Sequence record: NC_047899.1
Strand: one strand, 5' to 3'
DNA: 44,895 nt
DNA from: Escherichia phage VEc3
This document shows, piece after piece, positions 6,950 through 36,365 of this stretch. Under the pieces are notes generated by a model. The model searched no databases and had not been told where the DNA came from. It saw only the letters and a program-made list of their open reading frames with translations. Positions within the stretch are counted from its first letter, which is position 1. Each line of letters starts with the position of its first letter. Both the position numbers and the translations under genes were made by a program.

Positions 6950-8938
6950 ATGGCTATTATTCAGAATGTACCGTGTCCTGCCTGTCAAAAGAATGGACAT
7001 GATATTACTGGCAACCATCTTATGATATTTGAGGATGGCGCTGGTTACTGTAACCGTGGTCACTTCCATGATAACGGTAAACCTTATTACCACAAGCCGG
7101 AAGGTGGCATCGAGATAACCGAGTTACCTATTACTGGCAATATCAAATATACACCTTCTCAATTCAAAGAAATGGAGAAGGAAGGGAAGATAAGCGACCC
7201 TAAGCTACGCGCCATCGCACTTGGTGGTATGCGTATGAAAGACCGTTGGGAGGTTATGAATGAGCAAGAAAGGGCAGACCAAGAAGCAGAGTGGAAACTT
7301 GATGTTGAATGGTTCCTCACGCTTAAGCGTAAGAACCTTGTATCCCGTCACATTCGAGGTGACATCGCAGCAATGTACGATGTGCGCGTTGGACACGATG
7401 AAGAGGGAAGAGTCAACCGTCACTATTATCCACGATATGAAAAGGGTGTGCTTGTTGGAGCAAAATGCCGGACGTTGCCGAAGGATTTTAAGTTCGGACA
7501 CCTAGGTAAACTCTTTGGTATGCAAGATCTTTTCGGTATGAACACTTTGTCTCACGTGTTAGACAAGGGGAGACGAAAGGATTGCTTGCTTATTGTAGGC
7601 GGTGAACTTGATGCACTAGCAGCGCAGCAGATGCTCCTTGATTCTGCCAAGGGTACTAAGTGGGAAGGCCAGCCATACCATGTATGGTCTGTCAACAAAG
7701 GTGAGTCTTGCCTTGAAGAGATAGTGCAGAACCGTGAGCATATCGCCCAATTCAAGAAGATTATTTGGGGCTTTGATGGGGATGGGGTTGGGCAGAAGCA
7801 GAACCAGCAAGCGGCTCGCCTGTTTCCCGGCAAATCCTATATCCTTGAATATCCTTCTGGTTGCAAAGATGCCAACAAGGCATTGATGGCTGGCAAGGCT
7901 AAAGAATTTGTGGATGCTTGGTTTAATGCAAAGTCATCTGATGAAGTCTTTGGTAGCCAGATTAAATCTATCGCATCTCAAAGAGATAAGCTCAAGGCTG
8001 CACGTCCAGAACAAGGGCTGTCATGGCCTTGGCCTAAGCTAAACAAGGTAACACTGGGTATCCGTAAGAACCAGCTTATCATTATAGGTGCAGGCTCTGG
8101 TGTAGGTAAGACTGAGTTCCTCCGTGAAGTAGTTAAGCATCTCATTGAAGAACACGGTGAATCTGTAGGCATCATTTCTACAGAAGACCCGATGGTCAAG
8201 GTGTCCCGTGCTTTTATCGGTAAGTGGATTGATAAGCGTATTGAGTTACCTCCAACCAATGACCCGAAAGAAGACGGATACCGTGAGGTGTTCGACTACA
8301 CCGAGGAAGAAGCTAACGCCGCCATTGATTATGTAGCTGATACAGGTAAGCTGTTTGTAGCTGACCTAGAAGGTGACTATTCGATGGAGAAGGTAGAGCA
8401 AACTTGCCTAGAGTTTGAGGCCATGGGTATTTCTAATATCATCATTGATAACTTAACGGGGATTAAATTAGATGAGCGTGCTTTTGGTGGGAAGGTTGGT
8501 GCACTTGATGAATGCGTCAAGCGGATTGGTACTATCAAAGACAGACACCCAGTTACTATATTCCTTGTATCACACCTTACACGTCCTCCGGCAAACCGTA
8601 CCCAACACGAAGAAGGTGGCGAGGTTATCCTTTCTGACTTCCGAGGCTCAGGAGCTATCGGATTCTGGGCATCTTACGCCTTGGGGATTGAGCGTAATAC
8701 AAGAGCTGAAACGCTTGACGAAAGGACTACCACGTATATCTCATGTGTCAAAGATCGCGACCAAGGTATCTTCACCGGAACCAAGATTATGCTTAAGGGT
8801 GATATTCAAACCGGACGTTTGAGAGAACCACAGGCTAGAACAAGGTCATTTGATACAGGTGAAGCAAGGCAACAAGAAGTGCCGGATTTACCGGACACTA
8901 TAGAAGAGACAACTTTTGACGATGAACAGGAGTTTTAA
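6950..8938 (+). CDS. DNA primase/helicase (gp4-like)
   Basis: 662 aa; N-terminal Cys4 zinc ribbon (CPACQ...CNRGHFH); Walker A GAGSGVGKT; acidic C-terminus ending ...DDEQEF. Confidence 0.9.
   Translation: MAIIQNVPCPACQKNGHDITGNHLMIFEDGAGYCNRGHFHDNGKPYYHKPEGGIEITELPITGNIKYTPSQFKEMEKEGKISDPKLRAIALGGMRMKDRWEVMNEQERADQEAEWKLDVEWFLTLKRKNLVSRHIRGDIAAMYDVRVGHDEEGRVNRHYYPRYEKGVLVGAKCRTLPKDFKFGHLGKLFGMQDLFGMNTLSHVLDKGRRKDCLLIVGGELDALAAQQMLLDSAKGTKWEGQPYHVWSVNKGESCLEEIVQNREHIAQFKKIIWGFDGDGVGQKQNQQAARLFPGKSYILEYPSGCKDANKALMAGKAKEFVDAWFNAKSSDEVFGSQIKSIASQRDKLKAARPEQGLSWPWPKLNKVTLGIRKNQLIIIGAGSGVGKTEFLREVVKHLIEEHGESVGIISTEDPMVKVSRAFIGKWIDKRIELPPTNDPKEDGYREVFDYTEEEANAAIDYVADTGKLFVADLEGDYSMEKVEQTCLEFEAMGISNIIIDNLTGIKLDERAFGGKVGALDECVKRIGTIKDRHPVTIFLVSHLTRPPANRTQHEEGGEVILSDFRGSGAIGFWASYALGIERNTRAETLDERTTTYISCVKDRDQGIFTGTKIMLKGDIQTGRLREPQARTRSFDTGEARQQEVPDLPDTIEETTFDDEQEF
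8886..8908 (+). promoter_or_regulatory. Phage RNAP promoter embedded in the primase/helicase 3' coding sequence
   Basis: ATTTACCGGACACTATAGAAGAG, full consensus; +1 G at 8903; encodes ...DLPDTIEE... Confidence 0.65.
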
Positions 8939-9099
8939 TGGAAATTATTAAACCAGTATTGAATATCGGTATTGAGATCCTATTCATGCTTGTGATCGCA
9001 GATTATGCTGCACGATATGGCTTCAAGAAAGCAGTGAAACTTATCGTTGCATCTGGTTTTATGATGTCAATGTTCTTTATTGTAACACGCCTTATCTAG
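8938..9099 (+). CDS. Small membrane protein (53 aa)
   Basis: ATG overlaps the primase stop (TAATG); two hydrophobic segments. Confidence 0.4.
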   Translation: MEIIKPVLNIGIEILFMLVIADYAARYGFKKAVKLIVASGFMMSMFFIVTRLI

Positions 9100-9116
9100 T
9101 GTATTTATCAGGGCTT

Positions 9117-9132
9117 GTCTCACATGTGAGAC
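9117..9132. repeat. 16-bp perfect palindrome GTCTCACATGTGAGAC (copy 3)
   Basis: Extended stem GCTTGTCTCACA/TGTGAGACAGGC, followed by TCTTATT. Confidence 0.8.
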
Positions 9133-9171
9133 AGGCTCTTATTAAGTACATTAAATAACTGGAGATTGATT

Positions 9172-9855
9172 ATGTATAAATTAGTATTGAATGTAGGTGA
9201 TTATGTTCGTAACATCAATGAAGCCTCACGTCGTTATCGTTGCCGTGGTGTAGTGGCTCGTGTAAGTGAGAACATGTATCATGTAGAATATGATGAGGGT
9301 ATTAAGGCTTCTTATCACAAGAAAACCGCACATAAATATCTTGAAAAGGTTGTAGAGGTAAGCAATCAATGTAAGTGCATACATGATGAGGTTTGCGATA
9401 AATGTGCTCGCCAGATGCTTAAGAATTTCCTAGCCCCTCTTTATTATGGTGCTGGTCCTCAAACACTAGCAGAGTACATGGCAGAAAAGAAAACCACACT
9501 CAAGAAAGAGCGTCGCAATGTAATCACTGGTAAGACTCAGAGTGAGATGATTAAGCAATGTGGCACTGCATTAGGTGTTACACAGTTCAATACTCGTGCA
9601 TTGGGTAAATCCACAGGACAAGCTATGGTGAAAATTGGTGAAGCTATGATGCACCCAAATGTGCCTGTGCGAATCTTGGATGTTGACCATGCAATCACAG
9701 AGCATGGCACACCACGGCGTGTAGCTAATGATCATTTCGCCGACACTATAGAAGGTATTATTCGTAAGCAAGGGTTGAAAGGTCTTCACATCTTGAATGA
9801 TGAAGAGTTACTGTACCTCCCTATTGTTACTGAAGAAACATACGTGAATATCTAA
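9172..9855 (+). CDS. Hypothetical protein (227 aa), Cys-containing
   Basis: Track ORF 9166-9855 (TTG); ATG 9172 preferred (GGAG 7 nt upstream); no family recognised. Confidence 0.6.
   Translation: MYKLVLNVGDYVRNINEASRRYRCRGVVARVSENMYHVEYDEGIKASYHKKTAHKYLEKVVEVSNQCKCIHDEVCDKCARQMLKNFLAPLYYGAGPQTLAEYMAEKKTTLKKERRNVITGKTQSEMIKQCGTALGVTQFNTRALGKSTGQAMVKIGEAMMHPNVPVRILDVDHAITEHGTPRRVANDHFADTIEGIIRKQGLKGLHILNDEELLYLPIVTEETYVNI
9734..9756 (+). promoter_or_regulatory. Candidate phage promoter inside CDS (ATTTCGCCGACACTATAGAAGGT)
   Basis: Conserved -12 to +5 core GACACTATAGAAG, upstream half diverged. Confidence 0.35.
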
Positions 9856-9865
9856 GGAGTTAATC

Positions 9866-10084
9866 ATGACTAAGGTATTAATTTATATGCGTGGACCTCA
9901 TAAATGCTATGCAGTTGTAGCACCAAATGGTGTTAAGCCTTATAGTACTTCAAAAGGATTGGCATTAATAGGTGCTAGTAGTAGTGCAAGTTTCCAAATG
10001 GAACTTTTTGGTCATTGGACTGAAAGGCAATTCCGTGAGGATTTTAAAGTCATTGGCAGCTTCATGGTGAAATATGCAGAATAA
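9866..10084 (+). CDS. Hypothetical protein (72 aa)
   Basis: Track ORF; AAGGAG RBS. Confidence 0.5.
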   Translation: MTKVLIYMRGPHKCYAVVAPNGVKPYSTSKGLALIGASSSASFQMELFGHWTERQFREDFKVIGSFMVKYAE

Positions 10085-10250
10085 ACATAGTCTTAGAATG
10101 TTCGATGGTCATGAAGACCTGCAAGCCAAGATTACTAACCAAGCCTTCCTGTTCGCACAGTTAACTATGGCTGAGGCCAAGAAGAATAGTCTCACTCGTG
10201 AACAGGTTATCAAGGAAAGTGAAGTGAAACGTAAGATTCGCAGTCGATAA
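10074..10250 (+). CDS. Small ORF (58 aa), hypothetical
   Basis: ATG 10074 overlapping upstream gene end; no clear RBS. Confidence 0.3.
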   Translation: MQNKHSLRMFDGHEDLQAKITNQAFLFAQLTMAEAKKNSLTREQVIKESEVKRKIRSR

Positions 10251-10260
10251 GTCAAGGGTT

Positions 10261-10276
10261 GTCTCACGTGTGAGAC
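10261..10276. repeat. Palindrome variant GTCTCACGTGTGAGAC (copy 4)
   Basis: One central change; extended stem GGTTGTCTCAC/GTGAGACAGCC then TTTTAT. Confidence 0.7.
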
Positions 10277-10307
10277 AGCCTTTTATCATGTTGATTGGAG
10301 GTGCATT

Positions 10308-10415
10308 ATGCCACGTGATTATGATTCTGATTGGGACTATTATGACTCAATGAATCCAAAACCCGAACGTTCAGATGATTACTACGAAACAGAGGTAATG
10401 TATGAAGACTATTGA
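10308..10415 (+). CDS. Small acidic ORF (35 aa), hypothetical
   Basis: GGAGG RBS 6 nt upstream; overlaps DNAP start by 14 nt. Confidence 0.35.
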   Translation: MPRDYDSDWDYYDSMNPKPERSDDYYETEVMYEDY

Positions 10416-12948
10416 TTGGAAGAAGGAGGCAGAAGGTCGTATCCTCGTGATGGATGCGGAAGCTAAAGGACTCCTTGACGCTATCCGATATGGACACCGT
10501 GAAGATGTGCATATCATTTGCTGCATGGACTTGCTTACTACCGAGGAGTTTCTCTTCTTCGACCCGTATGAGATGCGTGACCCTGAAGCAAGAGAACGCC
10601 TGAAGGAATGGGAAGGTCATCAAGACGGAACCTTGGTTGATGGTGTTAACTTCCTGAAGCATTGTGAAGCTATTGTGTCACAGAACTTCCTAGGGTATGA
10701 CGGACTTCTCTTTGAGAAAGCATTCCCTGATATTTGGAAAGGCTTTAACTATACCGAGAAGCGCGGTAAGGGCAGACTCCGTGCTGACCTGTGCCCGGTG
10801 CGAGTCATGGATACGCTGGTGATGAGTCGCCTGTTAAACCCCGATAGACGCCTTCCTCCGCAAGCATATGCCAAAGGTATGGGTAACGTCGCCCCTCACT
10901 CAATTGAGGCGCACGGCATCCGTATAGGTCGCTATAAACCGGAGAACGAGGACTGGTCTAAACTAACTGACCACATGGTTCACCGTGTACGTGAGGACGT
11001 GGCGATTGGTCGTGACCTATTCCTCTGGCTATTTAACGGAGAATGGACGGAGCACAAACGCCGTGGCGTGAATAAACGCACTGGCCTAGGTATTGAGACA
11101 GCCTTCCACATGGAGTCCATTGTGGCGCTGGAGATGAGCCGTCAGGCCGAGCGCGGGTTCCGTCTGGACATCGACAAGGCTTTGGCCCGATGCGAAGAAT
11201 TGGACGCTAAGATTGATGAGACAGTCGCAGCGTTCCGCCCTCACATGCCTATGCGTATCAAGTCTAAACCTTTTAAACCGGAAGAAAAGAATGAAGTATG
11301 CCAACGCGCAAATGAGTATGGAGCTAGCAACAATATACCTACTGTCCTTGACCCCTCACACTTTCTTCATGCCGAGAGACGAGGAGATCGCAAGACAGTA
11401 TGGAGTGTCACTACTAAGTCTGGTGATTGGTCGGCTAGTGTCAAGAAAGACTTTCCTCACCTTAGAGGAAACCGTAATGACACGCCAAGCATCAAGTGGA
11501 TTGGCGCTTACTCGCCTGTTACTTTCGAAGAGATCCCCTTGGGTAACAGGGGTACAGTTAAGCAAGTGCTCTATGAGTATGGATGGAAAGGTGTTGAATT
11601 TAACGATACCGAGCAAGCTCATCTCGATGAGCACGGAGTGTTACCAAAACCTTGGAGTGGTAAGATAAATGAAAAGTCCCTCACTTTATGGCAAGAAAGA
11701 GCCGCACGTGAAGGTAAAACAGTCCCTGATTGGTGCTTGGGTATCGCTGCATGGTACATATTCGTATCCCGTCGTGGTCAGATACTCAACCGTGGTGACG
11801 TTGAAGCCTTCAACGAGAAGGGAACGTGGCCCTCGCAGGCTGGTGTACGAAAGTGTCGCGGCCTTGTACCTGTAGCATTCAACAAGGAGCTAGGAATCAA
11901 TGCGCAGCAATACTACGAGAGGTACGGATGTTGGCCTACGTCTGACAAAGATGACGGAGAGTGGCGTGTTCCAGCTGTTGCTATTAGTATTGGCACTTCT
12001 ACGTTCCGTATGCGTCATCGTAACGTGGTTAATATTCCTGCCCGTGGCTTGTATCCTTTACGTGATTTATTCATAGCAGGGAAAGGCAAGCTAATCCTTG
12101 GTTGTGACGGTGCAGGTCTTGAACTGCGTGTCCTGTCTCACTTCATGAATGACCCTGAGTACCAAGAGATTGTACTGCACGGTGATATTCATACGCATAA
12201 CCAGATGAAGGCTGGTCTTCCTAAGCGTGATATGGCGAAGACGTTTATATACGCCTTCCTCTATGGTTCTGGTATAGCCAACCTTGCAGCAGTCTGCGGT
12301 GTTACTGAGGAAGAAATGAAGGAAGTTGTGGCAAGATTCGAGATTGAACTACCGTCTCTTGCACGTCTTCGTGAGAATGTTATCGCACAAGGTAACAAGT
12401 TTGGCTACCTGCAAGCACCTGATGGGCATTGGGGTCGCATCCGCATGTCTGGTGGTGAACTTAAAGAGCACACGATGCTTAACGTATTACTCCAGATGAC
12501 TGGCTCTTTGTGTATGAAATATGCATTAGTCAAGGCATTTGCAGTAATGCGCAAGGAAGGTGTAGCTTTGGATGCTATGGGAAATCCTTGTGGTGTGGCT
12601 AACGTGCATGATGAAATCCAGATGGAAGTTCCTGAAGAGGAGGTCTTGTATCTTAACTACGACCTACCTTTCACCTTAGATGGGTTCGAAACAGAGAAGG
12701 CTGCTGTGAAAGCAGTTTTCGATGCAGAGGAGAAACGTGTTCATGTGGATTCTGAAGGACGTATGTGGTCTGCTGCAAACCTCGTTAGCGTTGATGCTGA
12801 TGCTGGTGTATTGCATTGCCAGCGCCGTTATCACCGTGCAGGTCATATCATTGCCGAAGCCATGACTTGGGCAGGGCAGTATCTGAAGATGCGTTGCCCG
12901 ATGGCAGGAGAATATAAGATTGGCGCAAGCTGGAAGGAAACACACTGA
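10402..12948 (+). CDS. DNA polymerase (family A, T7 gp5-like)
   Basis: 848 aa; exonuclease and polymerase blocks (GxDGAGLELRVLSHF, HGDIHTHNQ, KTFIYAFLYGSG, VHDEIQ). Confidence 0.93.
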   Translation: MKTIDWKKEAEGRILVMDAEAKGLLDAIRYGHREDVHIICCMDLLTTEEFLFFDPYEMRDPEARERLKEWEGHQDGTLVDGVNFLKHCEAIVSQNFLGYDGLLFEKAFPDIWKGFNYTEKRGKGRLRADLCPVRVMDTLVMSRLLNPDRRLPPQAYAKGMGNVAPHSIEAHGIRIGRYKPENEDWSKLTDHMVHRVREDVAIGRDLFLWLFNGEWTEHKRRGVNKRTGLGIETAFHMESIVALEMSRQAERGFRLDIDKALARCEELDAKIDETVAAFRPHMPMRIKSKPFKPEEKNEVCQRANEYGASNNIPTVLDPSHFLHAERRGDRKTVWSVTTKSGDWSASVKKDFPHLRGNRNDTPSIKWIGAYSPVTFEEIPLGNRGTVKQVLYEYGWKGVEFNDTEQAHLDEHGVLPKPWSGKINEKSLTLWQERAAREGKTVPDWCLGIAAWYIFVSRRGQILNRGDVEAFNEKGTWPSQAGVRKCRGLVPVAFNKELGINAQQYYERYGCWPTSDKDDGEWRVPAVAISIGTSTFRMRHRNVVNIPARGLYPLRDLFIAGKGKLILGCDGAGLELRVLSHFMNDPEYQEIVLHGDIHTHNQMKAGLPKRDMAKTFIYAFLYGSGIANLAAVCGVTEEEMKEVVARFEIELPSLARLRENVIAQGNKFGYLQAPDGHWGRIRMSGGELKEHTMLNVLLQMTGSLCMKYALVKAFAVMRKEGVALDAMGNPCGVANVHDEIQMEVPEEEVLYLNYDLPFTLDGFETEKAAVKAVFDAEEKRVHVDSEGRMWSAANLVSVDADAGVLHCQRRYHRAGHIIAEAMTWAGQYLKMRCPMAGEYKIGASWKETH

Positions 12949-13064
12949 TGGATAGGCTTGACATTATTTGCCTATTCTTCACTCTCTTTCTTACACTCCT
13001 TATGCTTGCTTGTTATGGGAGTATGAGACTAGATATACCTGATGAAGAAGAGGGTTACGACTAA
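12948..13064 (+). CDS. Small membrane protein (38 aa)
   Basis: ATG overlaps DNAP stop (TGATG); hydrophobic core LFFTLFLTLLMLACY. Confidence 0.35.
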   Translation: MDRLDIICLFFTLFLTLLMLACYGSMRLDIPDEEEGYD

Positions 13065-13162
13065 TGCAAACTGCTTTTATTATTCTTGGTATCATATTAT
13101 TTATGGTAGTACTCTGGGCCTTCTCTGGCATTGACCCGGATTGTGATGGTAACTACGACTGA
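13064..13162 (+). CDS. Small membrane protein (32 aa)
   Basis: TAATG overlap with upstream ORF; hydrophobic ILGIILFMVVLWAF. Confidence 0.35.
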   Translation: MQTAFIILGIILFMVVLWAFSGIDPDCDGNYD

Positions 13163-13230
13163 GTTATACTCAAGGTCACTTACGAGTGGCCTTTATGGAT
13201 AACTTATCCCTACTTATTTTGTCTAACATG

Positions 13231-13253
13231 ATTTACTGGACACTATAGAAGGA
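13231..13253 (+). promoter_or_regulatory. Phage RNAP promoter (ATTTACTGGACACTATAGAAGGA)
   Basis: Full consensus; +1 G at 13248. Confidence 0.7.
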
Positions 13254-13317
13254 AAGCCTAGACAATCTAGGTTTATAAGGTAGTATAGGTAATTAAGTAA
13301 ATATAGGAGATATAAAC

Positions 13318-13695
13318 ATGTCTATGGTAACTACTCTGGTATTTGTAGCTCAATACTTTCGTGGTCTGGCTAATAAGTTCAAGTCCAAGGCTATCAAAGC
13401 TATTGAGTCTCGCATCGAGGCAGTACAGGCAGAGCAAGTTAAAGTTGAAGAACATCGTAGTTCTAAAATGATTGACTGCCATAACCGCTACTATGCATCT
13501 CGTGATAACCTTAATGCACGCCAAGTCAAAGAGGTTGAAGAGATGCTGGCACGTCACCAGCAAGAGCGCGACAGTCTGAAAGCTGAATTTGAAGAGAACA
13601 AGGCATCCATCGCCCTTGTACATCAAGCCGCATCTGACAGCCTGAAGAAAGAGATTGTTATGCTGGAAATTGAGTTAGACAACCTGACCAAATAA
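13318..13695 (+). CDS. Hypothetical coiled-coil protein (125 aa), N-terminal hydrophobic segment
   Basis: Track ORF; AGGAG RBS. Confidence 0.55.
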   Translation: MSMVTTLVFVAQYFRGLANKFKSKAIKAIESRIEAVQAEQVKVEEHRSSKMIDCHNRYYASRDNLNARQVKEVEEMLARHQQERDSLKAEFEENKASIALVHQAASDSLKKEIVMLEIELDNLTK

Positions 13696-13716
13696 TTACT
13701 GGACACTATAGAACAA
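13694..13716 (+). promoter_or_regulatory. Phage RNAP promoter (AATTACTGGACACTATAGAACAA)
   Basis: Consensus core; +1 G at 13711. Confidence 0.65.
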
Positions 13717-13857
13717 TAGGTCGGCTTAGTTCGGCCTATGATTGTAAAGTGTTGAACCTTATTGTGCATCTTGCACAACCCGATGCTATATCGGGCTTTC
13801 TAGTGAGTACATGCTTGTGCTCAGTACAAAACTAACTGACAATAGGAGACTAAATAA

Positions 13858-14664: not shown

Positions 14665-14673
14665 GGAGAAAGG

Positions 14674-14892
14674 ATGAAAGTACAAATCGTAACCCTGCAC
14701 TGCAAGAAAGGTATCACAACGCTCGGAGGTAGCACTTTCCACTCTTTCTCCGAAGGGGAGATTTATGCTGACCTGCACTACATCTGGCGCGACGGACAGC
14801 ACGTGGTGAACTACAGCGACCCAGCTACGGGGAAACGCCACGGCGTATCGCTTCCTGCGCATGACATTGCTCAGGTGAACACAGTTTTATAA
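14674..14892 (+). CDS. Hypothetical protein (72 aa)
   Basis: Track ORF; AAGGAG RBS. Confidence 0.5.
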   Translation: MKVQIVTLHCKKGITTLGGSTFHSFSEGEIYADLHYIWRDGQHVVNYSDPATGKRHGVSLPAHDIAQVNTVL

Positions 14893-14893
14893 A

Positions 14894-14909
14894 GTCTCAC
14901 ATGTGAGAC
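14894..14909. repeat. 16-bp perfect palindrome GTCTCACATGTGAGAC (copy 5)
   Basis: Two nt after the upstream stop and 15 nt before the promoter at 14925. Confidence 0.8.
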
Positions 14910-14924
14910 AAATCGGTGTCCGGT

Positions 14925-14947
14925 ATTTACTGGACACTATAGAAGAG
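14925..14947 (+). promoter_or_regulatory. Phage RNAP promoter (ATTTACTGGACACTATAGAAGAG)
   Basis: Full consensus; +1 G at 14942. Confidence 0.7.
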
Positions 14948-14996
14948 AAGAATTTTAATCGGCGATAATGCCACAACTAACAAAGGAGAATTTAAT

Positions 14997-15371: not shown

Positions 15372-15377
15372 TTGATG

Positions 15378-15410
15378 CCCTGTCTGCCTTAGTGTAGGCA
15401 GGGTCTTTTG
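15378..15410 (+). terminator. Terminator hairpin plus U-run
   Basis: CCCTGTCTGCC-TTAGTG-TAGGCAGGG then TCTTTT; same design as 24688. Confidence 0.65.
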
Positions 15411-17077: not shown

Positions 17078-18077
17078 GCTTCGCAGCTTGTACAAAGACT
17101 CCGAGGTACTTGATGCAATCGAGCAAGCTACCGACGAGAAAGGTAATGTTAATTACAATGAGATGGCACGTGTATTATCGTGTCACCCTGTGGGTAAGAA
17201 GATTACCCGCCAGTTGGCTCGATACTGGCATGGTCAATTCAAGAAGACCAAGAAGAATGGTGATTATTACCAGACCCTTCTGCAAGAAGATAAGCGTATC
17301 AAAGAAGAGCGTAAGCTCAGGACTCCTGACCGCTACGAGGATTTGGCTATTGTACCATTGCCTGACTCACCTCATCGAAGTGTACTGGTAATCCCAGATA
17401 CTCATGCACCTTATGAGCATCCAGATACCTTAGAGTTCCTTGCAGCAGTCGCGGCACGTTACCGTCCAGATACAGTGGTTCACTTAGGGGATGAGGCAGA
17501 TAAACACGCCCTCTCCTTCCATGACTCTGACCCGAATCTGGATAGTGCTGGCATGGAGCTAGAGAAGGCTCGTGTCTTCATGCACAAGTTGCACAAGATG
17601 TTCCCTGTGATGCGCCTGTGTCATTCTAATCATGGCTCTATGCACTTCCGTAAGGCAAGCGCCAAGGGTATTCCAGTGCAATATCTTCGCACCTACCGTG
17701 AAGTCTTCTTCCCAAATGGAGGTGGCGACCAGTGGGATTGGCAGCATACACATGTTCTTGAGTTGCCGAATGGTGAACAAGTGGCATTCAAGCATCAACC
17801 TGCTGGCTCTGTCCTAGCAGATGCAGCGCATGAGCGTATGAACCTTGTGTGTGGTCACTTGCACGGTAAGATGTCTGTGGAGTACGCACGTAATACACAT
17901 GAACAGTATTGGGCTGTGCAAGGTGGCTGCTTAATTGATGAGTCATCCCGTGCATTTGCCTATGGGCGTGAGTCTAAATACAAGCCAGCATTAGGTTGTG
18001 TGGTTATTCTGGAGGGTGTACCTCATATTGTCCCGATGCAAACCAATAGCGACAACCGTTGGATTGGCAAGATTTAG
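17070..18077 (+). CDS. Calcineurin-like metallophosphoesterase
   Basis: Motifs IPDTHAPYEH, LGDEADKH, CHSNHG, GHLHG; TTG start 17070 with AAGGAGG RBS preferred over track start 16938, which overlaps the endo VII gene; in-frame ATG at 17163 is an alternative. Confidence 0.6.
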   Translation: MGKLRSLYKDSEVLDAIEQATDEKGNVNYNEMARVLSCHPVGKKITRQLARYWHGQFKKTKKNGDYYQTLLQEDKRIKEERKLRTPDRYEDLAIVPLPDSPHRSVLVIPDTHAPYEHPDTLEFLAAVAARYRPDTVVHLGDEADKHALSFHDSDPNLDSAGMELEKARVFMHKLHKMFPVMRLCHSNHGSMHFRKASAKGIPVQYLRTYREVFFPNGGGDQWDWQHTHVLELPNGEQVAFKHQPAGSVLADAAHERMNLVCGHLHGKMSVEYARNTHEQYWAVQGGCLIDESSRAFAYGRESKYKPALGCVVILEGVPHIVPMQTNSDNRWIGKI

Positions 18078-18681: not shown

Positions 18682-18682
18682 T

Positions 18683-23402: not shown

Positions 23403-23425
23403 ATTTACTGGACACTATAGAAGGG
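23403..23425 (+). promoter_or_regulatory. Phage RNAP promoter for the capsid gene
   Basis: ATTTACTGGACACTATAGAAGGG; +1 G at 23420; transcript begins with hairpin GGGAGA-AATG-TCTCCC, then TAAGGAGG RBS. Confidence 0.75.
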
Positions 23426-24679: not shown

Positions 24680-24687
24680 TACCTATG

Positions 24688-24723
24688 CCCTATCTACCTT
24701 GCGTAGGTAGGGTTCTTTTTGTT
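24688..24723 (+). terminator. Terminator after the capsid gene
   Basis: CCCTATCTACC-TTGCG-TAGGTAGGG then TTCTTTTTGTT. Confidence 0.75.
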
Positions 24724-28595: not shown

Positions 28596-31543
28596 TGGCA
28601 ATTGAGCGACAAGCAGTACAAGGCCTGCCACAAGTGCAGGCCACTTCTCCTAATGTCATGACCTTTGCACCTCAGCGAGTTGGAGGTGTGGAGGCTGGCG
28701 TAGCTTCTACCTCCGGTAGTCGATTTATCGAAGACCTTATTCGAGCAGCCAGTAGTGTAGCTGATGTAACCACTGGTATCCTTAATCAAAAGATTGAGGA
28801 AGATAAGGTTGTTCAAATGGAACGGGCATATAACGGATTAATGCCTTCTGAGGATGCAACTCGTGGTGGCGCTCGTGCTAACATGCTTGTCAAAGCTCAA
28901 CTGCTAGCTAATGATGAAGCAGCACGAATGAAAGACATGGCTACTCGTTTCCAAGGAACGGATGACGAGTGGACACAACTTATGGTTGACTCTCGTAATG
29001 AGATGCAGAATAAGCTGTTCCAGCAATACCCTGAGTTGCAAGGTGACAAAGATATTATGCGTATGGTCACTAATGTCTTCCAAGAACAGCAGCCTCAGAT
29101 TTGGGCTACACGAACCCAGCATAAACTTGACCGTGAACAAGCAGACCGTGAGGATACCTTTGACGGGCGAGTGGCTTCTACTTGGGATTCTAGTATTGAC
29201 CCTGAAGCCTCTGGCTATGCTTTACAGGAACGAATCCGCGAAGGTCTTACTCAAGGATTACTACCTGAACAGATGCACAAGAAGTTAGTCCAGCGAGCAA
29301 TTTCACTTGCACAAGGCGGTGATGTTAGCATGGCTGAAGCCCTGAAGTATGTGAAGGATGATAAGGGTGTTTCTGTTTATGCTAAGAATCCACAGCTTAT
29401 CACAGCCATCACTAGTGGTAATGCAGTTTGGGCTAGGAATAATGTAGCTGATGTAACTCGTATGTCTTTCGAAGTTAAAGAATCCTACCTTGCAGGTGAT
29501 TTAACTGATGAAGAATTGTTGGAACGAGCACAGCACATTAATAATCTGACAGGTAACTCTGTCTTCTCTAATCCAGAGCTAGAGGCACTGATGCGCCAAC
29601 GGGCTAAGCAGAATGCAGAGCTAGGTGCAATGCAGGATATGCGACGTGAGCTTTACTCCGACCGCCTGACTGGCTTCCAAGGTAAGACTGATAAAGAGAA
29701 GAAGGCTTACATTGATGTTATCAAACAGGATAGCCAACTTTATGCAGACCAGCAAATCAAACAACGTGGCTTGGACCCTTACAGTCAAGAGGCTGAAGCT
29801 ATTCGTGGTGCAGTGGAAGTGCAGCGCCTGCAATTCATGAACTCCAAAGGCTTAGTGGATGATACCTTTGAGTCTCGTATCAAAGCCATGGAATCTATGC
29901 TATCGCCTGAGCACTTTGCCAAGGGCGAACCACAGGAGTTGATGACTATTCGCCAGTTGTGGGAACAGTTGCCAGAAGAGAGCCGAGGTGTCTTTGGTGA
30001 CACGGTGAATGGCTATATGGATAACTACAACACTGCACTACAAATGGGAGAGACACCTCTGCAGGCTGCAAGGTTTGCGCGTGAAGCACAGCAGAAATTC
30101 TCTCGTACTGAGAAGGAAACCAAGAAGTTCAACTCAGCTATTGGAGATGCACTGGATGAGGTATCTGGTGCTGGCTGGTTTGATGGTAAAACCGAAGTGT
30201 CAGACTTAGGTAAAGCTATTGCGGAAGAAGAGTTACGAGCTAAGGCCAATATGTTGTGGTCTAGTGGTATGCGTAACATGGATTCTATCAAGAAGGCTTT
30301 AATTACTTGGGGCAATAAACGCTACACTCAAACAGAGGATGCAAAGACTTCCGGTGGCTATTTCATTAAAGGTGATTACACTTCTGCATCTGATATGCTT
30401 ATGTCAGTTGGGAAAGGCGTAAACCCTACCGATGTACCTCTGGCGCTTGGTAGGTATGTAGAAACACAGATGCCAGAATTGAAGAAGGAGCTTCAAGAGT
30501 GGGAAACTAAAGATGATATATACATTGATTACAATGAACAGAAAGGAACTTTTGTGATTCGTGCTGGTGCAGCAGGTCGCCCTCTTTCTGGAGTAATCCC
30601 TGTAACCTCTTTAGATACTACTTCACTACTAGATTCTGCCTATCAGAAGAAAGTAGAGGAACGAGATAAAGGCGAGTATGTCCACCCGTATCGTACAGAT
30701 ATTGGTGCACAAGAGCCTATGCCAGCTAAACCAACTGCCAAAGATATTGGTAAATTTGGACTAGCTAACTTCCTCATGTCTTCTGCTTTTGCTTCTGGTG
30801 AGAATCTGCCTTCTAACTTCGAGATTAACTATCGAGGTAATATGCAACAATTCTATGACAAGCTAGCTATGGATGAGAATAAAGATAAAGTTGGCTTTAA
30901 TAAGGCAACTGGAACCTTTACTCCATATAAAGACGCTCGCGGTGAGTCTATCGGTTACGGTCATTTCTTAACGGAAGAAGAGAAGCGAAACGGGTATATT
31001 AAGATTGGTGATGAACTAGTTCCCTATCGAGGGTCTATGTCTCAGCTTACAGAGAGCAAGGCTCGCGCTCTTATGGAGCAAGATGCCAAGAAGCATGTGC
31101 CTCCTACTCGTGACTGGAAGATTCCGTTTGACCAGATGCATCCTGCACAGCAACGTGGCTTGATGGATTTAACCTACAATTTAGGTAAAGGTGGAATCCA
31201 GAACTCACCGCGTGCTCTTGCTGCATTCAAAGCTGGTAAGCTTACGGAAGGCTTTATCGAAATGCTGGGCACTGCATCAAGTGAAGGTAAGCGTATCCCT
31301 GGTCTACTGAAGCGACGCGCTGAGGCATACAATATGGCATCTGCTGGTGGTGTGCCTAAGATTACCGAAGTGGAGACTCGTGAAGATGGCTCCATGTGGG
31401 TTAGGTTTGGTGGACCTATGCCAGCAGGTTCTGTCTCGGCATGGACTCATAAACGTATTGGCGCGGATGGTTGGTATCAGGTTTATGAGGCTGCACCTAC
31501 CAAGTTGGCTAAAGGTTCTAAGGTAGGTAAATTTAAGTTGTAG
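28595..31543 (+). CDS. Internal virion protein with C-terminal lysozyme-like domain
   Basis: 982 aa; C-terminal YKDARGESIGYGH and LMDLTYNLG blocks resemble T4-type lysozyme (YKDTEGYYTIGIGH). Confidence 0.7.
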   Translation: MAIERQAVQGLPQVQATSPNVMTFAPQRVGGVEAGVASTSGSRFIEDLIRAASSVADVTTGILNQKIEEDKVVQMERAYNGLMPSEDATRGGARANMLVKAQLLANDEAARMKDMATRFQGTDDEWTQLMVDSRNEMQNKLFQQYPELQGDKDIMRMVTNVFQEQQPQIWATRTQHKLDREQADREDTFDGRVASTWDSSIDPEASGYALQERIREGLTQGLLPEQMHKKLVQRAISLAQGGDVSMAEALKYVKDDKGVSVYAKNPQLITAITSGNAVWARNNVADVTRMSFEVKESYLAGDLTDEELLERAQHINNLTGNSVFSNPELEALMRQRAKQNAELGAMQDMRRELYSDRLTGFQGKTDKEKKAYIDVIKQDSQLYADQQIKQRGLDPYSQEAEAIRGAVEVQRLQFMNSKGLVDDTFESRIKAMESMLSPEHFAKGEPQELMTIRQLWEQLPEESRGVFGDTVNGYMDNYNTALQMGETPLQAARFAREAQQKFSRTEKETKKFNSAIGDALDEVSGAGWFDGKTEVSDLGKAIAEEELRAKANMLWSSGMRNMDSIKKALITWGNKRYTQTEDAKTSGGYFIKGDYTSASDMLMSVGKGVNPTDVPLALGRYVETQMPELKKELQEWETKDDIYIDYNEQKGTFVIRAGAAGRPLSGVIPVTSLDTTSLLDSAYQKKVEERDKGEYVHPYRTDIGAQEPMPAKPTAKDIGKFGLANFLMSSAFASGENLPSNFEINYRGNMQQFYDKLAMDENKDKVGFNKATGTFTPYKDARGESIGYGHFLTEEEKRNGYIKIGDELVPYRGSMSQLTESKARALMEQDAKKHVPPTRDWKIPFDQMHPAQQRGLMDLTYNLGKGGIQNSPRALAAFKAGKLTEGFIEMLGTASSEGKRIPGLLKRRAEAYNMASAGGVPKITEVETREDGSMWVRFGGPMPAGSVSAWTHKRIGADGWYQVYEAAPTKLAKGSKVGKFKL

Positions 31544-31560
31544 TATCTAACTCAAGGCTT

Positions 31561-31576
31561 GTCTCACATGTGAGAC
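31561..31576. repeat. 16-bp perfect palindrome GTCTCACATGTGAGAC (copy 6)
   Basis: Between the two large internal virion protein genes; extended stem then TCTTTAT. Confidence 0.8.
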
Positions 31577-31607
31577 AGGTCTTTATGATAGGCACTATGG
31601 AGGAATT

Positions 31608-34600
31608 ATGGAACAAGACATTAAGACTAATTGGGCTGGATATGTCCAGTCTACTCCTGAGCCGTTTTCTATTGAGGCGGCTCCGGTATCGGCTCCTACG
31701 ATACGCCAGCGTAATGAGTTACAAGAGCAAGTTCTTGAAGCTAAAGCTGATGCTGATATCTTAGGTGCTGTAGGTGCTGCCTTCCAGAAGGAGTGGTTGG
31801 CATTCGGAGGCAAGCGGTGGTATGACCGTGCCACTGCTGATTTCACACCTCAACCAGACTTCGAGATACAACCTGAGCAACGTGAAGCACTACGTTTCAA
31901 ATATGGTACAGATATGATGCAGACAATCACTGAGGGTGTTCGTTCTGAGGATGAATTGAACTTCCGTATTCAGAATGCTGATGAAGACCTTGAGCGCAAT
32001 AAGCGCATTGCTCAGGCTGGCTGGGTTGGCTCTGTGGCGACGATTGGCGCTGCTGTGCTTGACCCTGTGGGATGGGTTGCCTCTATTCCAACCGGTGGTG
32101 CCGCTAAAGTTGGACTCGTAGGCCGTGCTGTGCGTGGCGCTATCGCCGCTGGCGTAAGTAATGCCGCTATTGAATCCGTATTGGTCCAAGGTGACATGAC
32201 TCGTGATTTAGATGACATTATGGTAGCACTAGGCTCCGGTATGGCTATGGGTGGCGTTATTGGAGCTGTAGCGCGTGGTAGGGCCACTAAGCTCAGTGAG
32301 CAAGGAGATGACAGGGCTGCGAGCATTGTGCGCAGTGCAGACGCAGGGGACCGCTATGTGCGTGCTGTTGCTGATGATAGTATCGGTGCGATGCGTGTTA
32401 AGGGTGAAGAGTTACTCACTGAGGGTGCATTTGATATCTCTAGCAAAGGTGAAGATTTGCTGAAAACCCTACAGCGGGAAGGTAATGCAATTGATATGAC
32501 CCCTCGCCGCTGGGCCGGAACTCTGTCTGCCCTTGGTACTGTCGTACATTCCTCTCAGGATGCAAGTGTACGCGGCCTTGGTGCTCGCCTGTTTGAGTCC
32601 CCCCAAGGCTTAGGTATGCAGAAGGCATCTGCTAGTCTCATGCAGAATACTAACTTGAACCGTCTGAAATCTGCTGATATGAATCGTTTCAACGATGGGT
32701 TCGATTTATGGCTCAAAGAGAATAATATCAACCCGGTTGCAGGTCATACTAACTCTCACTATGTGCAGCAATATAATGAGAAGGTATGGGAAGCTGTACG
32801 CATCGGTATGGATGAGTCTACGCCTAAGTCTATCCGTATGGCAGCAGAGGGGCAGCAAGCTATGTATCGTGAAGCATTAGCATTACGTCAACGCTCTGGT
32901 GAAGCTGGGTTTGAAAAGGTTAAAGCAGATGATAAGTACATGCCTGATATTTTTGACAGTATGAAGGCTCGTCGTCAATTCAGTATGCACGATAAAGAGG
33001 ACATCATTGAGTTATTCTCTCGTGCATACCAGAATGGTTCTCGTAAGGTTCCAAAGGAAGTGGCTGATGATATTGCACGAGCACAAGTAAACCGCGTTGC
33101 TGATGCCACCTTGACCGGACAGCTTAGCTTTGAAAAGGCTATGTCTGGTCAAACCAAAGCAGAATATGAAGCACTAATGCGCAAAGCAGGCTTTAGTGAT
33201 GAAGAGATTGAAAAGATGGTAGAAGCTCTGGATAATAAAGAAACCAGAGATAATATCTCTAACCGAGCTAAGATGAGTTTAGGCTTAGATGTTACTCAAG
33301 AGTACAATGGCATTCGTATGCGTGACTTTATGAACACTAACGTGGAAGAGTTAACAGATAACTACATGAAGGAAGCGGCAGGTGGTGCTGCCTTGGCTCG
33401 TCAAGGTTTCTCTACCTATCAGGCTGCACTTAATGCAATTGATCTTGTAGAGCGAAATGCACGAAATGCAGCTAAAGATACAAAAGCACACGCACAATTT
33501 GAAGCGGAGTCGGCTAAGATCCGTCAATCAGAGCCTGATTACAAGAAGGCACAAGAGAAGATTGAAGAGTTAAAGAAGCGACTTAAATTGAAAGAGAAAG
33601 ATGAAGCAGCTGGTCTGGCTATTGATGAAGAAATCCGTCAGATGCGAGAAGGGCTTCGCTTGATTATGGGTAAATCTATCGATTCAAACCCACAAGATTT
33701 GTCTACTAAAATGCTGCGTCGTGGGCGTGACATTACAGGTGTACTTCGCTTAGGTCAGATGGGCTTCGCACAGCTAGGTGAACTTGCTAACTTCATGGGT
33801 GAGTTTGGTATTGCTGCCACCACTATGGCTTTAGGTAAGCAATTCCGCTTCACCTCTAAGGCGTTGCGTAATGGCGATGGCTTCTTTCGAGATAAGAATT
33901 TAGCTGAGGTTGAGCGAATGGTAGGTTACATTGGTGAAGACAACTGGCTGACAACTAAGGGTGCGCGTCCCGATGAGTTTGGTGATGTAACCACAGTGCG
34001 AGGTATGATGGCCCATTTTGACCAGTCCATGAACTCTATACGACGTGCTCAGACAAACCTATCCCTCTTCCGCATGGCACAGGGTTCTCTGGAGCGAATG
34101 ACCAATAGGCAAATAGCTTTGTCTTTCATTGACCACCTTGAAGGCAAGAAGATTATTCCTCAGAAGAAACTGGAGGAACTTGGTCTTACTCAGGAGTTCA
34201 TGACTAACCTACAGAAGCACTATGATGCTAACTCTAAAGGTTCTGGCTTGCTTGGCTTTGATACAATGCCTTATGCCATGGGTGAAACTTTAGCTAATGC
34301 TATTCGTCGTAAGTCAGGTCTAATTATCCAACGTAACTTCATTGGTGATGAAGGTATCTGGATGAACAAAGCACTAGGTAAGACATTTGCACAGCTTAAG
34401 TCATTCTCTCTTGTATCTGGTGAGAAGCAATTTGGTCGAGGGATTCGCCACGATAAAATTGGTCTTGCTAAGAAGACAGCTTATGGTTTTGCTTTGGGTT
34501 CAATAGTGTATGCGGCAAAAGCCTATGTGAACTCTATTGGTCGAGAAGACCAAGATGAATATTTGGAAGAGAAGTTATCGCCTAAAGGGTTGGCCTTTGG

Positions 34601-34916
34601 TGCAATGGGTATGATGAGTACAACTGCTGTATTTAGTCTAGGTGGAGATTTCTTAGGTGGCCTAGGTGTTCTACCTTCTGAGTTAGTACAATCCCGTTAT
34701 GAGGCTGGCTTTCAGACTAAGGGTTTGATAGACCAAATACCACTAGTAGGTGTTGGTCAAGATGCATATCGTTTAGCAGATTCTATAACTAAATACGCAG
34801 AGGGTGATACAGAAGGTGTAGATGTGGCACGTAGGGTTTTACGCTTAGTGCCTCTAGCTAATGTAATAGGAATCCAGAACGCATTGCGTTATGGCTTAGA
34901 TGAACTGGAGGATTAA
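31608..34916 (+). CDS. Large internal virion/ejection protein (gp16-like)
   Basis: 1102 aa; position and size. Confidence 0.7.
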   Translation: MEQDIKTNWAGYVQSTPEPFSIEAAPVSAPTIRQRNELQEQVLEAKADADILGAVGAAFQKEWLAFGGKRWYDRATADFTPQPDFEIQPEQREALRFKYGTDMMQTITEGVRSEDELNFRIQNADEDLERNKRIAQAGWVGSVATIGAAVLDPVGWVASIPTGGAAKVGLVGRAVRGAIAAGVSNAAIESVLVQGDMTRDLDDIMVALGSGMAMGGVIGAVARGRATKLSEQGDDRAASIVRSADAGDRYVRAVADDSIGAMRVKGEELLTEGAFDISSKGEDLLKTLQREGNAIDMTPRRWAGTLSALGTVVHSSQDASVRGLGARLFESPQGLGMQKASASLMQNTNLNRLKSADMNRFNDGFDLWLKENNINPVAGHTNSHYVQQYNEKVWEAVRIGMDESTPKSIRMAAEGQQAMYREALALRQRSGEAGFEKVKADDKYMPDIFDSMKARRQFSMHDKEDIIELFSRAYQNGSRKVPKEVADDIARAQVNRVADATLTGQLSFEKAMSGQTKAEYEALMRKAGFSDEEIEKMVEALDNKETRDNISNRAKMSLGLDVTQEYNGIRMRDFMNTNVEELTDNYMKEAAGGAALARQGFSTYQAALNAIDLVERNARNAAKDTKAHAQFEAESAKIRQSEPDYKKAQEKIEELKKRLKLKEKDEAAGLAIDEEIRQMREGLRLIMGKSIDSNPQDLSTKMLRRGRDITGVLRLGQMGFAQLGELANFMGEFGIAATTMALGKQFRFTSKALRNGDGFFRDKNLAEVERMVGYIGEDNWLTTKGARPDEFGDVTTVRGMMAHFDQSMNSIRRAQTNLSLFRMAQGSLERMTNRQIALSFIDHLEGKKIIPQKKLEELGLTQEFMTNLQKHYDANSKGSGLLGFDTMPYAMGETLANAIRRKSGLIIQRNFIGDEGIWMNKALGKTFAQLKSFSLVSGEKQFGRGIRHDKIGLAKKTAYGFALGSIVYAAKAYVNSIGREDQDEYLEEKLSPKGLAFGAMGMMSTTAVFSLGGDFLGGLGVLPSELVQSRYEAGFQTKGLIDQIPLVGVGQDAYRLADSITKYAEGDTEGVDVARRVLRLVPLANVIGIQNALRYGLDELED

Positions 34917-35878
34917 TGAGTTATACTTTCACAGAACATATAGCCAACGGTACGCAAGTAACCTATCCCTTTAGCTTTGCTGGTAGGGATAAAGGTTATC
35001 TTCGTGCCTCAGATGTGATAGTGGAGTCTCTTCAAGGTAACACTTGGATTGAGGTTACATCTGGCTGGCAACTAACTGGCACGCACCAGATTACTTTTGA
35101 TGTAGCACCAGTTGCAGGTTTGAAGTTCCGTATTCGAAGGGAAGTACAAAAGGAGTATCCATACGCTGAGTTTGACCGTGGTGTTACCTTGGATATGAAG
35201 TCTTTAAATGGTTCTTTCATTCATATACTGGAGATTACACAGGAGTTACTTGACGGGTTTTATCCAGAAGGATACTTCATTAAACAGAATGTAAGCTGGG
35301 GCGGCAATAAGATTACTGATTTGGCTGATGGCACAAATCCTGGAGATGCAGTAAATAAAGGGCAGCTTGATGCCATCGACAAGAAGCATACAGATTGGAA
35401 CGCCAAACAGGACATTGAGATTGCTGGCCTTAAGGCTGGTATGACTTCTGGTATTGCGCACAGTTCTATTCCTTGGTACACGATAGCCAAAGGTGGTGAG
35501 GTTTCCGTAAAACCACCTTATGAATTTCAAGATGCACTAGTTTCCCTTAATGGGGTATTGCAGCACCAAATTGTAGGCGCATACTCTATAAGCAACAACA
35601 CTATCACTTTCGCAGAGCCGCTTGTGGCGGGTACAGAGGTGTATGTGGTGATTGGTAGTCGTGTGGCTACATCTGAACCTACTATTCAGTCAGAGTTGAA
35701 CTTTGACTTAATAGAAGGCCAACAAGTAGTACAGATTGGCTCTGCATTTAAGTACATTGAGGTCTACCTTGATGGATTATTACAACCTAAACTTGCTTAT
35801 CAGGTAGACGGTGACATTGTTACTTTCTCAGAAAGAGTACCAGAATGCCGGATGACTGCTAAGATTATCACAGCATAA
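34916..35878 (+). CDS. Tail fiber/tailspike adaptor protein (gp17 N-domain-like)
   Basis: 320 aa; N-terminal region resembles the T7 gp17 tail-attachment domain. Confidence 0.7.
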   Translation: MSYTFTEHIANGTQVTYPFSFAGRDKGYLRASDVIVESLQGNTWIEVTSGWQLTGTHQITFDVAPVAGLKFRIRREVQKEYPYAEFDRGVTLDMKSLNGSFIHILEITQELLDGFYPEGYFIKQNVSWGGNKITDLADGTNPGDAVNKGQLDAIDKKHTDWNAKQDIEIAGLKAGMTSGIAHSSIPWYTIAKGGEVSVKPPYEFQDALVSLNGVLQHQIVGAYSISNNTITFAEPLVAGTEVYVVIGSRVATSEPTIQSELNFDLIEGQQVVQIGSAFKYIEVYLDGLLQPKLAYQVDGDIVTFSERVPECRMTAKIITA

Positions 35879-35887
35879 GGAGGTGGG

Positions 35888-36082
35888 ATGATTAACTCCG
35901 AACTGGTAGATAGTGGTGTGAAGCTTGCGCCACCTGCACTCGTATCAGGTGGGTACTTCCTCGGTATCAGTTGGGATAATTGGGTGTTAATAGCAACATT
36001 CATTTATACCGTGTTGCAAATTGGGGACTGGTTTTATAATAAGTTCAAGATTTGGAGGGAGAAGCGTGAGCGTACACAATAA
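35888..36082 (+). CDS. Holin (class II-like)
   Basis: 64 aa; two hydrophobic segments and charged C-terminus KIWREKRERTQ; AAGGAGG RBS. Confidence 0.55.
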   Translation: MINSELVDSGVKLAPPALVSGGYFLGISWDNWVLIATFIYTVLQIGDWFYNKFKIWREKRERTQ

Positions 36083-36365
36083 ACATGCAGCTACAGAGGA
36101 CGAGGTTGGCATTCTGCATGGTGCTATTACCAAAATCTTCAATAAGAAAGCACAGGCAATACTGGACACTATAGAAGAAGACCCTGATGCAGCATTACAT
36201 TTAGTGTCTGGTAAGGATATTGGTGCGATGTGTAAGTGGGTTCTTGATAACGGCATTACCGCCACACCTGCTGCACAGCAGGAAGAGTCCAAGTTATCTA
36301 AGCGCCTCAAGGCTATCCGAGAGGCATCCAGTGGTAAGATAATTCAGTTTACAAAAGAGGAGTGA
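36066..36365 (+). CDS. Terminase small subunit (gp18-like), start uncertain
   Basis: GTG 36066 with GGAGGG RBS preferred; track ATG 36021 is the alternative; position between holin and terminase large subunit. Confidence 0.45.
   Translation: MSVHNKHAATEDEVGILHGAITKIFNKKAQAILDTIEEDPDAALHLVSGKDIGAMCKWVLDNGITATPAAQQEESKLSKRLKAIREASSGKIIQFTKEE
36157..36179 (+). promoter_or_regulatory. Phage RNAP promoter embedded in the terminase small subunit CDS
   Basis: GGCAATACTGGACACTATAGAAGAAG; +1 G at 36174; encodes ...AILDTIEED. Confidence 0.55.

Follow-up and report, generated by a model that had tools for sequence, protein, structure and literature searches.

RNA polymerases of the T7/SP6 type recognize the promoter duplex from -17 to -5 by its sequence alone, melt the TATA element and start transcription at the +1 G. 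In the compact phages that encode them, promoters lying inside genes are ordinary and documented, and a promoter inside the primase/helicase gene is textbook material: φ4c of phage T7 (NC_001604), at 12671, lies inside the primase/helicase coding sequence (11565-13265), is read by the phage's own polymerase in the direction of the gene and gives nested transcripts. Here we analyze three sequences of this kind in the genome of Escherichia phage VEc3 (NC_047899.1; 44,895 nucleotides (nt), the whole of which is termed the window), located inside the primase/helicase gene, gp10 and the small terminase gene (terS). The three intragenic copies of the promoter of the phage's own RNA polymerase are real and are kept in relatives, and we infer from their sequence and conservation that they probably function as promoters.

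The helicase site of the window resembles T7 φ4c in its host gene, its orientation and the nested transcripts that it would produce. The T7 recognition sequence differs (TAATACGACTCACTATAG), and the T7 sites are annotated in the sequence record, whereas those of the window are predicted. In addition, φ4c is placed about 600 nt before the stop codon, in the folded helicase domain, whereas the site of the window is found in the last 17 codons, in a tail that cannot be aligned. φ4c is a class II promoter, as is φ4.3, which T7 has 76 nt past the primase/helicase stop.

Phage SP6, with the promoter ATTTAGGTGACACTATAGAAG, has a homologous helicase site (AATTAGGTGACACTATAGAAGAG) at 8411-8433, inside its gene 9 (6472-8457), and a core-perfect site starting at 9111 in gene 10. 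SP6 and the window share the core GACACTATAG and the GAA start, but at -12 to -10 SP6 has GGT where the window has CTG or CCG. The RNA polymerases of phages K1E and K1-5 share 99% identity, and their identity with the SP6 polymerase is 85% (PMC6412113). Transcription from a K1E promoter by the K1E polymerase has been shown experimentally in a plasmid setting (PMC6412113); this expression system has the same polymerase family and promoter type as the window, but its promoter is on a plasmid, and the paper does not address promoter locations in the phage genome. SP6 RNA polymerase is most active with GAA at +1 to +3 (PMC7429497), the bases found there in all three intragenic sites described here. 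The GenBank records of K1-5, SP6 and K1E contain no promoter features, and none of the other matching records inspected marks these sites. The original genome papers reportedly tabulate promoters, and these exact sites are likely to be among those listed.

Promoter matches inside three genes

When a 4-kb piece of the window was compared with phage records, 142 matches were obtained, the best being to Vectrevirus phages of Escherichia (K1E, K1-5 and relatives) at 92-98% identity. The window is a Vectrevirus genome, K1E/K1-5-like and part of the SP6-like subfamily Molineuxvirinae (SP6 supergroup). The enzyme that would read the promoters of the window is encoded by a gene syntenic with those annotated as RNA polymerase in K1-5 and K1E. 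This gene, the three sites (given from -17 to +6), their host genes and the features downstream are as follows.

3447-6074, + strand: phage single-subunit RNA polymerase gene (Pfam RNA_pol, E = 4.5e-89; RPOL_N, E = 1.5e-31)
6950-8938, + strand: primase/helicase gene, host of site 1 (phrog_239, E = 2.3e-185)
8886-8908, + strand: site 1, candidate promoter ATTTACCGGACACTATAGAAGAG, +1 G at 8903, 37.2 bits
8938-9099, + strand: gene 9.5 (53 aa), first gene downstream of site 1 (phrog_15806, E = 2.5e-38; gp9.5 in K1E)
9172-9855, + strand: gp10 gene, function unassigned, host of site 2 (phrog_6703, E = 3.6e-123; gp10 in K1E and K1-5; no match in a Pfam search)
9734-9756, + strand: site 2, promoter-like ATTTCGCCGACACTATAGAAGGT, +1 G at 9751, 19.9 bits
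9866-10084, + strand: gp10.5, the gene that comes next after site 2, with a leader of 115 nt (phrog_9214; K1E gp10.5)
10402-12948, + strand: DNA polymerase gene, annotated as such in close relatives
24687-24713, + strand: strong terminator-like hairpin past the major capsid gene, with a T run behind an 11-pair stem
36066-36365, + strand: small terminase gene, host of site 3 (phrog_891, E = 3e-25; Pfam DNA_Packaging_2, PF11123, E = 3.6e-16)
36157-36179, + strand: site 3, candidate promoter CAATACTGGACACTATAGAAGAA, +1 G at 36174, 25.5 bits, encoding A-I-L-D-T-I-E-E
36367-36810, + strand: HNH endonuclease gene, first gene downstream of site 3, 193-nt leader (phrog_59, phrog_959; Pfam HNH_3)
36797-38695, + strand: large terminase gene (terL), conserved target downstream of site 3 (phrog_17672, E = 2e-238; N-terminus matching K1-5 terL)

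A search for the 21-mer ATTTACTGGACACTATAGAAG with at most 5 mismatches gave 13 matches in the window, all on the + strand and co-directional with the genes. The core 13-mer GACACTATAGAAG, with at most 2 mismatches, was observed 13 times against 1.35 expected and is exact at all three intragenic sites. We built a weight matrix from only the ten promoters not inside genes and scored it over both strands of the window. Thirteen positions reached at least 19.9 bits; the next best on either strand scored 8.7 and the maximum among shuffled sequences was 13.5. Site 1, at 37.2 bits, is the second best in the genome by this matrix that had not been trained on it, followed among the intragenic sites by site 3 (25.5) and site 2 (19.9). 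On the minus strand, none of 14 Vectrevirus genomes had a site reaching 15 bits. Consensus matches to the two host sigma-70 hexamers were also counted (33 and 31, versus 32.0 and 35.2 expected from shuffles), and none is prominent at the three sites.

These scores bear out two calls of an initial annotation made from the sequence alone, which had described a strong promoter inside terS and a weaker one inside the 9172-9855 gene: both lie wholly within their reading frames, and the latter has the lowest score of the three. For site 1 it had proposed a full-consensus promoter in the last 50 nt of the primase/helicase gene. The placement inside the gene is correct, although the site begins 53 nt ahead of where the stop codon ends, and the wording "full consensus" needs a small amendment, as the sequence matches the best site of the genome (14925) except for C in place of T at -11, a C common to the promoters at 6166 and 6351.

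Chance or compositional matches are rejected by the shuffles and by recoding of the proteome. With the proteins fixed and codons resampled according to genome usage, the mean number of sites of at least 19 bits was 0.26; none of the 2000 recodings gave three or more sites and none gave a site of 37.2 bits, and an earlier set of 300 recodings had yielded at most 3. The codons actually used have probabilities, given the peptides, of 1.4e-4, 2.9e-4 and 6.8e-5 for the three sites as listed. The peptide DTIE occurs three times in the approximately 40 open reading frames (ORFs), exactly at the three sites, and is encoded each time by GACACTATAGAA. That all three sites are read in the same frame (GAC ACT ATA GAA) is not significant, with a chance of about 1 in 4, as a TAG in one of the three frames makes that frame impossible. 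As a rare-codon signal, the ATA codon is a weak candidate, for ATA makes up 17% of the Ile codons in the window.

Conservation and covariation in related phages

All 13 sites, intragenic and intergenic, occur at homologous places in 14 of the 14 complete Vectrevirus genomes. The initial annotation had held that the three sequences are constrained as both protein code and promoter, and had suggested examining the overlapped codons in relatives. In addition to the retention of the sites, synonymous diversity in these codons proved to be 2-5x below the average of the gene.

Primase/helicase: synonymous diversity 0.032 in the overlapped codons, 0.164 in the whole gene (one-sided p 0.03)
gp10: 0.081 in the overlapped codons, 0.168 in the whole gene (one-sided p 0.08)
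terS: 0.068 in the overlapped codons, 0.204 in the whole gene (one-sided p 0.04)

Taken with the covariation of specificity and the departures from consensus tied to particular residues, both described below, these comparisons support the proposed double constraint.

Site 1 comprises codons 646-653 of the primase/helicase, which encode D-L-P-D-T-I-E-E. Structures of T7 gp4 match the protein to about residue 607 of 662, and the site lies beyond this point. Its leader is only 35 nt long; the helicase codons for Q-E double as its Shine-Dalgarno sequence, CAGGAG, and gene 9.5 begins with an ATG that overlaps the helicase stop. We compared the helicase tails of 35 related IMG/VR loci, K1-5 and SP6. 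In nine clades, a promoter-like sequence is found about 10-12 codons before the helicase stop, and in each clade its specificity bases agree with those of the two intergenic promoters that precede the helicase gene in that locus. Over positions -13 to -5, the helicase-tail site agrees with the promoters of its own clade at 8.56 of 9 positions, versus 4.46 of 9 for other clades, and 0 of 100,000 random reassignments were as good. The sites and the peptides that they encode include the following.

Vectrevirus: ATTTACCGGACACTATAG, peptide DLPDTIE
L037-L040 group: ATTTAGGTGACACTATAG, peptide DLGDTIE
PP1-like: ACTTAGGGCGGACTATAG, peptide DLGRTIE
L046: AATTAGAGACCACTATAG, peptide ELETTIE
phD2B-like: AAATAGGGGCTACTATAG, peptide EIGATIE
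L048: ATATGTGTTGCACTATAG, peptide DMCCTIE
L049-51: CAATAGTGGCGGGTATAG, peptide PIVAGIE

No recognisable promoter was found in the helicase tail of one SP6-like lineage, L045 (IMGVR_UViG_2706795336_000001), which has lost or relocated a site that is widespread otherwise. Because the peptide shifts with promoter specificity across clades, it is the promoter that appears to dictate the sequence of the helicase tail, and the tail that tolerates it. Such covariation is strong comparative evidence for function, and we regard it as highly likely that site 1 is a functional promoter.

Directly past the helicase promoter, two haplotypes can be distinguished at 8909-8945 of the window and at the same place in L028-L036, L039 and K1-5. 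Haplotype A reads ...CAG GAG TTT TAA TG and continues into gene 9.5; haplotype B reads ...AGT GAG TTC TGA and has no gene 9.5. In L039, a member of another clade, gene 9.5 also follows the equivalent helicase-tail promoter. This arrangement suggests that the helicase promoter marks a boundary for module exchange. A separate observation concerns position -7, where the change C>T (GGATACTATAG) arose independently in the helicase-tail site of K1-5 and in the terS site of L004 (1589-1611), hinting that the K1E/K1-5-type polymerase may tolerate T at this position.

Site 2 is also present in all 14 Vectrevirus genomes, with a reduced score of 14.0 bits in NTNC80A. Its departures from the consensus lie on the residues H-F (-17 to -13), which are conserved in most clades. 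At a distance of about 3 codons in the gp10 alignment, the SP6-like clades carry their own type of element (TTACGTGACACTATAGG), perfect in the core, in which the Leu, Arg and Thr codons are invariant, and this favours a functional role for the element. Site 2 is a weaker compromise with conserved gp10 residues. Among the three it has the least support and the greatest ambiguity, with mixed evidence across clades; the balance tips only slightly toward its being functional.

The terS gene of the window has the length and position of K1-5 terS. Site 3 follows the consensus from -14 to +4 and departs from it at -17 to -15 (CAA for ATT). This departure falls on A-I, part of the A-I-L at -17 to -12 that is conserved in every clade, and is a visible compromise with the protein. 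In Vectrevirus, the codons ATA CTG GAC ACT ATA GAA are near-invariant, with synonymous variation in the flanking codons. In the outgroup clades, identical or similar residues (I-L-D-A/S-I-E) are specified by ATC CTN GAT GCN ATC GAG, and these clades have no promoter at this site or within 1.5 kb on either side. The differences between site 3 and the outgroups are mostly synonymous, with one Ala/Ser-to-Thr replacement, which suggests that the promoter arose within Vectrevirus. We judge site 3 likely to be functional.

The small terminase gene of SP6 is without such a site; SP6 instead has a core-perfect promoter-like site (CGCTAGGTGACACTATAGGTG) at 29392 (L003), inside gene 35, which encodes an internal virion protein. 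Three genomes of the Vectrevirus type have an SP6-type site (CATTAGGTGACACTATAGGAG) in the corresponding gene (L065 at 32196, L066 at 29651 and L067 at 27264). In the lineages of SP6 and L065-L067, the long late region may therefore be served by another intragenic promoter. Within terS of the window, an in-frame ATG (36228-36230) preceded by AAGGA is located 55 nt downstream of the +1 of site 3; it is a matter of speculation whether an internal transcript might yield the last 46 residues of the small terminase, a conserved C-terminal stretch (MCKWVLDNG...).

The HNH gene is inserted exactly between terS and terL and overlaps the start of terL by 14 nt. It is covered by 16 of 201 matching phage records and is absent from K1-5, K1E and SP6. 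In relatives that lack it, the terS promoter is 191 nt upstream of the large terminase gene. Other endonuclease genes are found nearby: in K1E, a homing endonuclease splits the large terminase gene (gp40A/40.5/40B), and in mutPK1A2 an HNH homing endonuclease is annotated in the same terS-terL region, although no more than 66% of the query is matched there.

Proposed mode of action and alternative explanations

We consider it quite probable that the three sites are working promoters of the phage's own T7/SP6-type RNA polymerase that lie inside coding sequence, sites 1 and 3 being very probably functional and site 2 possibly so. Since recognition depends on duplex sequence alone, the polymerase would fire regardless of ribosomes reading the same DNA as codons. 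Each site would start a nested transcript in the 3' part of its host gene, adding to read-through and raising expression downstream. Transcripts from site 1 (+1 at 8903) would cover gene 9.5, gp10 and the DNA polymerase cluster, and those from site 2 (+1 at 9751) the genes from gp10.5 to DNA polymerase; the promoter map shows no promoter other than these two between 6351 and 13231. Site 3 (+1 at 36174) would serve the large terminase gene and, in this genome, the HNH endonuclease gene as well. It is the only phage promoter in the late region of about 14 kb that extends from the hairpin at 24687-24713 to 38694. At site 1, the promoter would be accommodated in an unstructured, acidic C-terminal tail of the helicase, where the protein could tolerate a peptide dictated by the promoter. 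Both the transcription start at the three sites and the effect downstream are inferred from sequence, position, statistics, conservation and covariation.

Several observations weigh against this interpretation, most of all for site 2. The bases of site 2 at -13 and -10 are absent from every other promoter of the genome, and the gp10 site of NTNC80A carries a core substitution (-9 G>A). L039 has no gp10 element, and that of L048 has stayed SP6-type even though the promoters of L048 itself are TGTGTTGCACTATAG, so that protein constraint or recent recombination could account for the element there. Core substitutions also occur in the K1-5 helicase-tail site (L002 8320-8340; -7 C>T) and in the terS sites of L004 (-7 C>T) and L013 (-8 A>G), and the sites are therefore not indispensable. 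The synonymous tests are weak singly (p = 0.03-0.08), with many other windows in each gene equally invariant; they are underpowered because the Vectrevirus clade is shallow and its genomes are very similar. The specificities of SP6 and K1-5 are close and probably cross-recognised, so that the argument from covariation rests on the six more divergent clades. Finally, a literature search gave nothing usable on transcription-start mapping in SP6-like phages, and no 5'-end or transcription data were found for the three sites.

Some of these points could indicate that one or more of the sites are non-functional look-alikes, kept for the sake of the DTIE peptide or as relics of recombination. We think this unlikely overall and most plausible for gp10, whose site combines the lowest score and its unique departures with an element that mismatches the promoter type of L048 and is missing from L039; the marginal synonymous tests within the clade and the core substitutions of some relatives point the same way. 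The reading of DTIE as a functional peptide motif is rejected for the helicase, whose peptide varies with promoter specificity and is in no way conserved. Elsewhere it is improbable, though less decisively so for gp10, since DTIE is found nowhere else in the proteome and its three copies use the same codons. The terS protein of the outgroups does well with D-A, D-S or A-A at this place, encoded by non-promoter codons. Even in gp10, a promoter-grade element persists in two lineages within the same part of the gene, including invariant six- and four-fold degenerate codons (TTA CGT GAC ACT ATA), and recoding by chance almost never yields three such sites.

The embedded sequences might alternatively act mainly at the DNA level, as conserved linkers at which recombination exchanges gene modules, as origins of transcription-primed replication or as aids to polymerase-driven genome entry or to packaging. 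The two Vectrevirus haplotypes that differ past the helicase promoter by the presence of gene 9.5, the recurrence of that gene in L039 and the insertion of an HNH gene downstream of the terS promoter in some genomes would fit such a role, as would the association of T7 replication origins with promoters. Yet such a role would still need a sequence that the polymerase recognises, and so is compatible with ordinary promoter function; each site precedes a gene with a Shine-Dalgarno sequence at the end of a 35-193 nt leader, and, if the analogy with T7 φ1.1A/B is followed, the tandem promoters at 6166 and 6351 make stronger candidates for origins. We consider a mainly DNA-level role improbable. 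Less credible again, to the point of being nearly negligible, is the idea that the terS site arrived with a mobile HNH cassette in order to drive the homing endonuclease. In its favour, the HNH gene is a variable insertion whose start codon follows the site by 193 nt, but the site lies outside that insert, within conserved terS coding sequence; the identical site, at the same terS codons, occurs in K1-5, K1E and most other Vectrevirus genomes, which have no HNH gene, and the terS/terL junction of K1-5 is clean, with no deletion footprint. Membership of the terS promoter in the HNH cassette is rejected on these grounds.

The remaining promoters and implications

The ten promoters of the window that are not inside genes are listed below.

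2187-2209, + strand: promoter, first 10 nt overlapping the 3' end of a 37-aa ORF
6166-6188, + strand: intergenic promoter after the RNA polymerase gene, the ACCGGA variant as in site 1
6351-6373, + strand: intergenic promoter, second of a tandem pair
13231-13253, + strand: intergenic consensus promoter
13694-13716, + strand: promoter, with AA at -17/-16 being the final two bases of a TAA stop (13693-13695)
14925-14947, + strand: intergenic consensus promoter, highest score
18072-18094, + strand: promoter, with TAG at -14 to -12 being the stop of the upstream gene (18075-18077)
23403-23425, + strand: consensus promoter upstream of the major capsid gene
38694-38716, + strand: promoter, with AA at -17/-16 completing the TAA stop of the large terminase gene (38693-38695)
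40370-40392, + strand: intergenic promoter upstream of the tail-spike genes

Four of these ten (2187, 13694, 18072 and 38694) extend 2-10 nt into the 3' end of the gene that precedes them. The departures from consensus at 13694 and 38694 (A at -16) are due to the TAA stop, and that at 18072 (G at -12) to the TAG stop. The overlap of promoter and code is thus a continuum in this compact genome: the stop-overlapping promoters touch only the last codons or the stop, whereas the three intragenic sites are entirely within reading frames and form the far end.

Other repeated or structured elements were noted near these promoters. A 16-bp palindrome (GTCTCACATGTGAGAC) is present at 6148-6163 and 6330-6345, 2-5 nt upstream of the tandem promoters at 6166 and 6351, and could be a regulator-binding or origin-associated element. 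Terminator-like hairpins on the + strand at 15377-15404, following the 14997-15371 gene, and at 24687-24713, following the major capsid gene, are alike in sequence (GCCCTGTCTGCC...GGCAGGGT and GCCCTATCTACC...GGTAGGGT). A third hairpin, of unrelated sequence, follows the RNA polymerase gene at 6082-6105.

With somewhat better than even confidence, we propose that the helicase-tail promoter is an ancient, fixed landmark of the SP6-like group, in which switches of specificity rewrote 4-5 residues of the tail, such that promoter specificity could be read from the helicase protein. Separately, lineages would have made new promoters within late genes, in terS in Vectrevirus and in gene 35 in SP6-type modules, mostly by synonymous changes, breaking up a late region of about 14 kb that was otherwise promoter-free.

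The practical value of these findings is modest, and the understanding of T7-type transcription is unchanged. The transcription map of K1E/K1-5-type phages should nevertheless include the three sites. These phages are used for therapy and genome engineering, and a design that recodes or deletes the 3' end of the helicase gene, of gp10 or of terS could abolish, unnoticed, promoters supplying the genes for DNA polymerase or the large terminase. For the evolution of the group, the sites are tidy illustrations rather than new biology: the helicase tail clearly exemplifies how a regulatory signal can prescribe part of a protein's sequence, and the terS promoter differs from its non-promoter counterpart almost wholly at silent codon positions.

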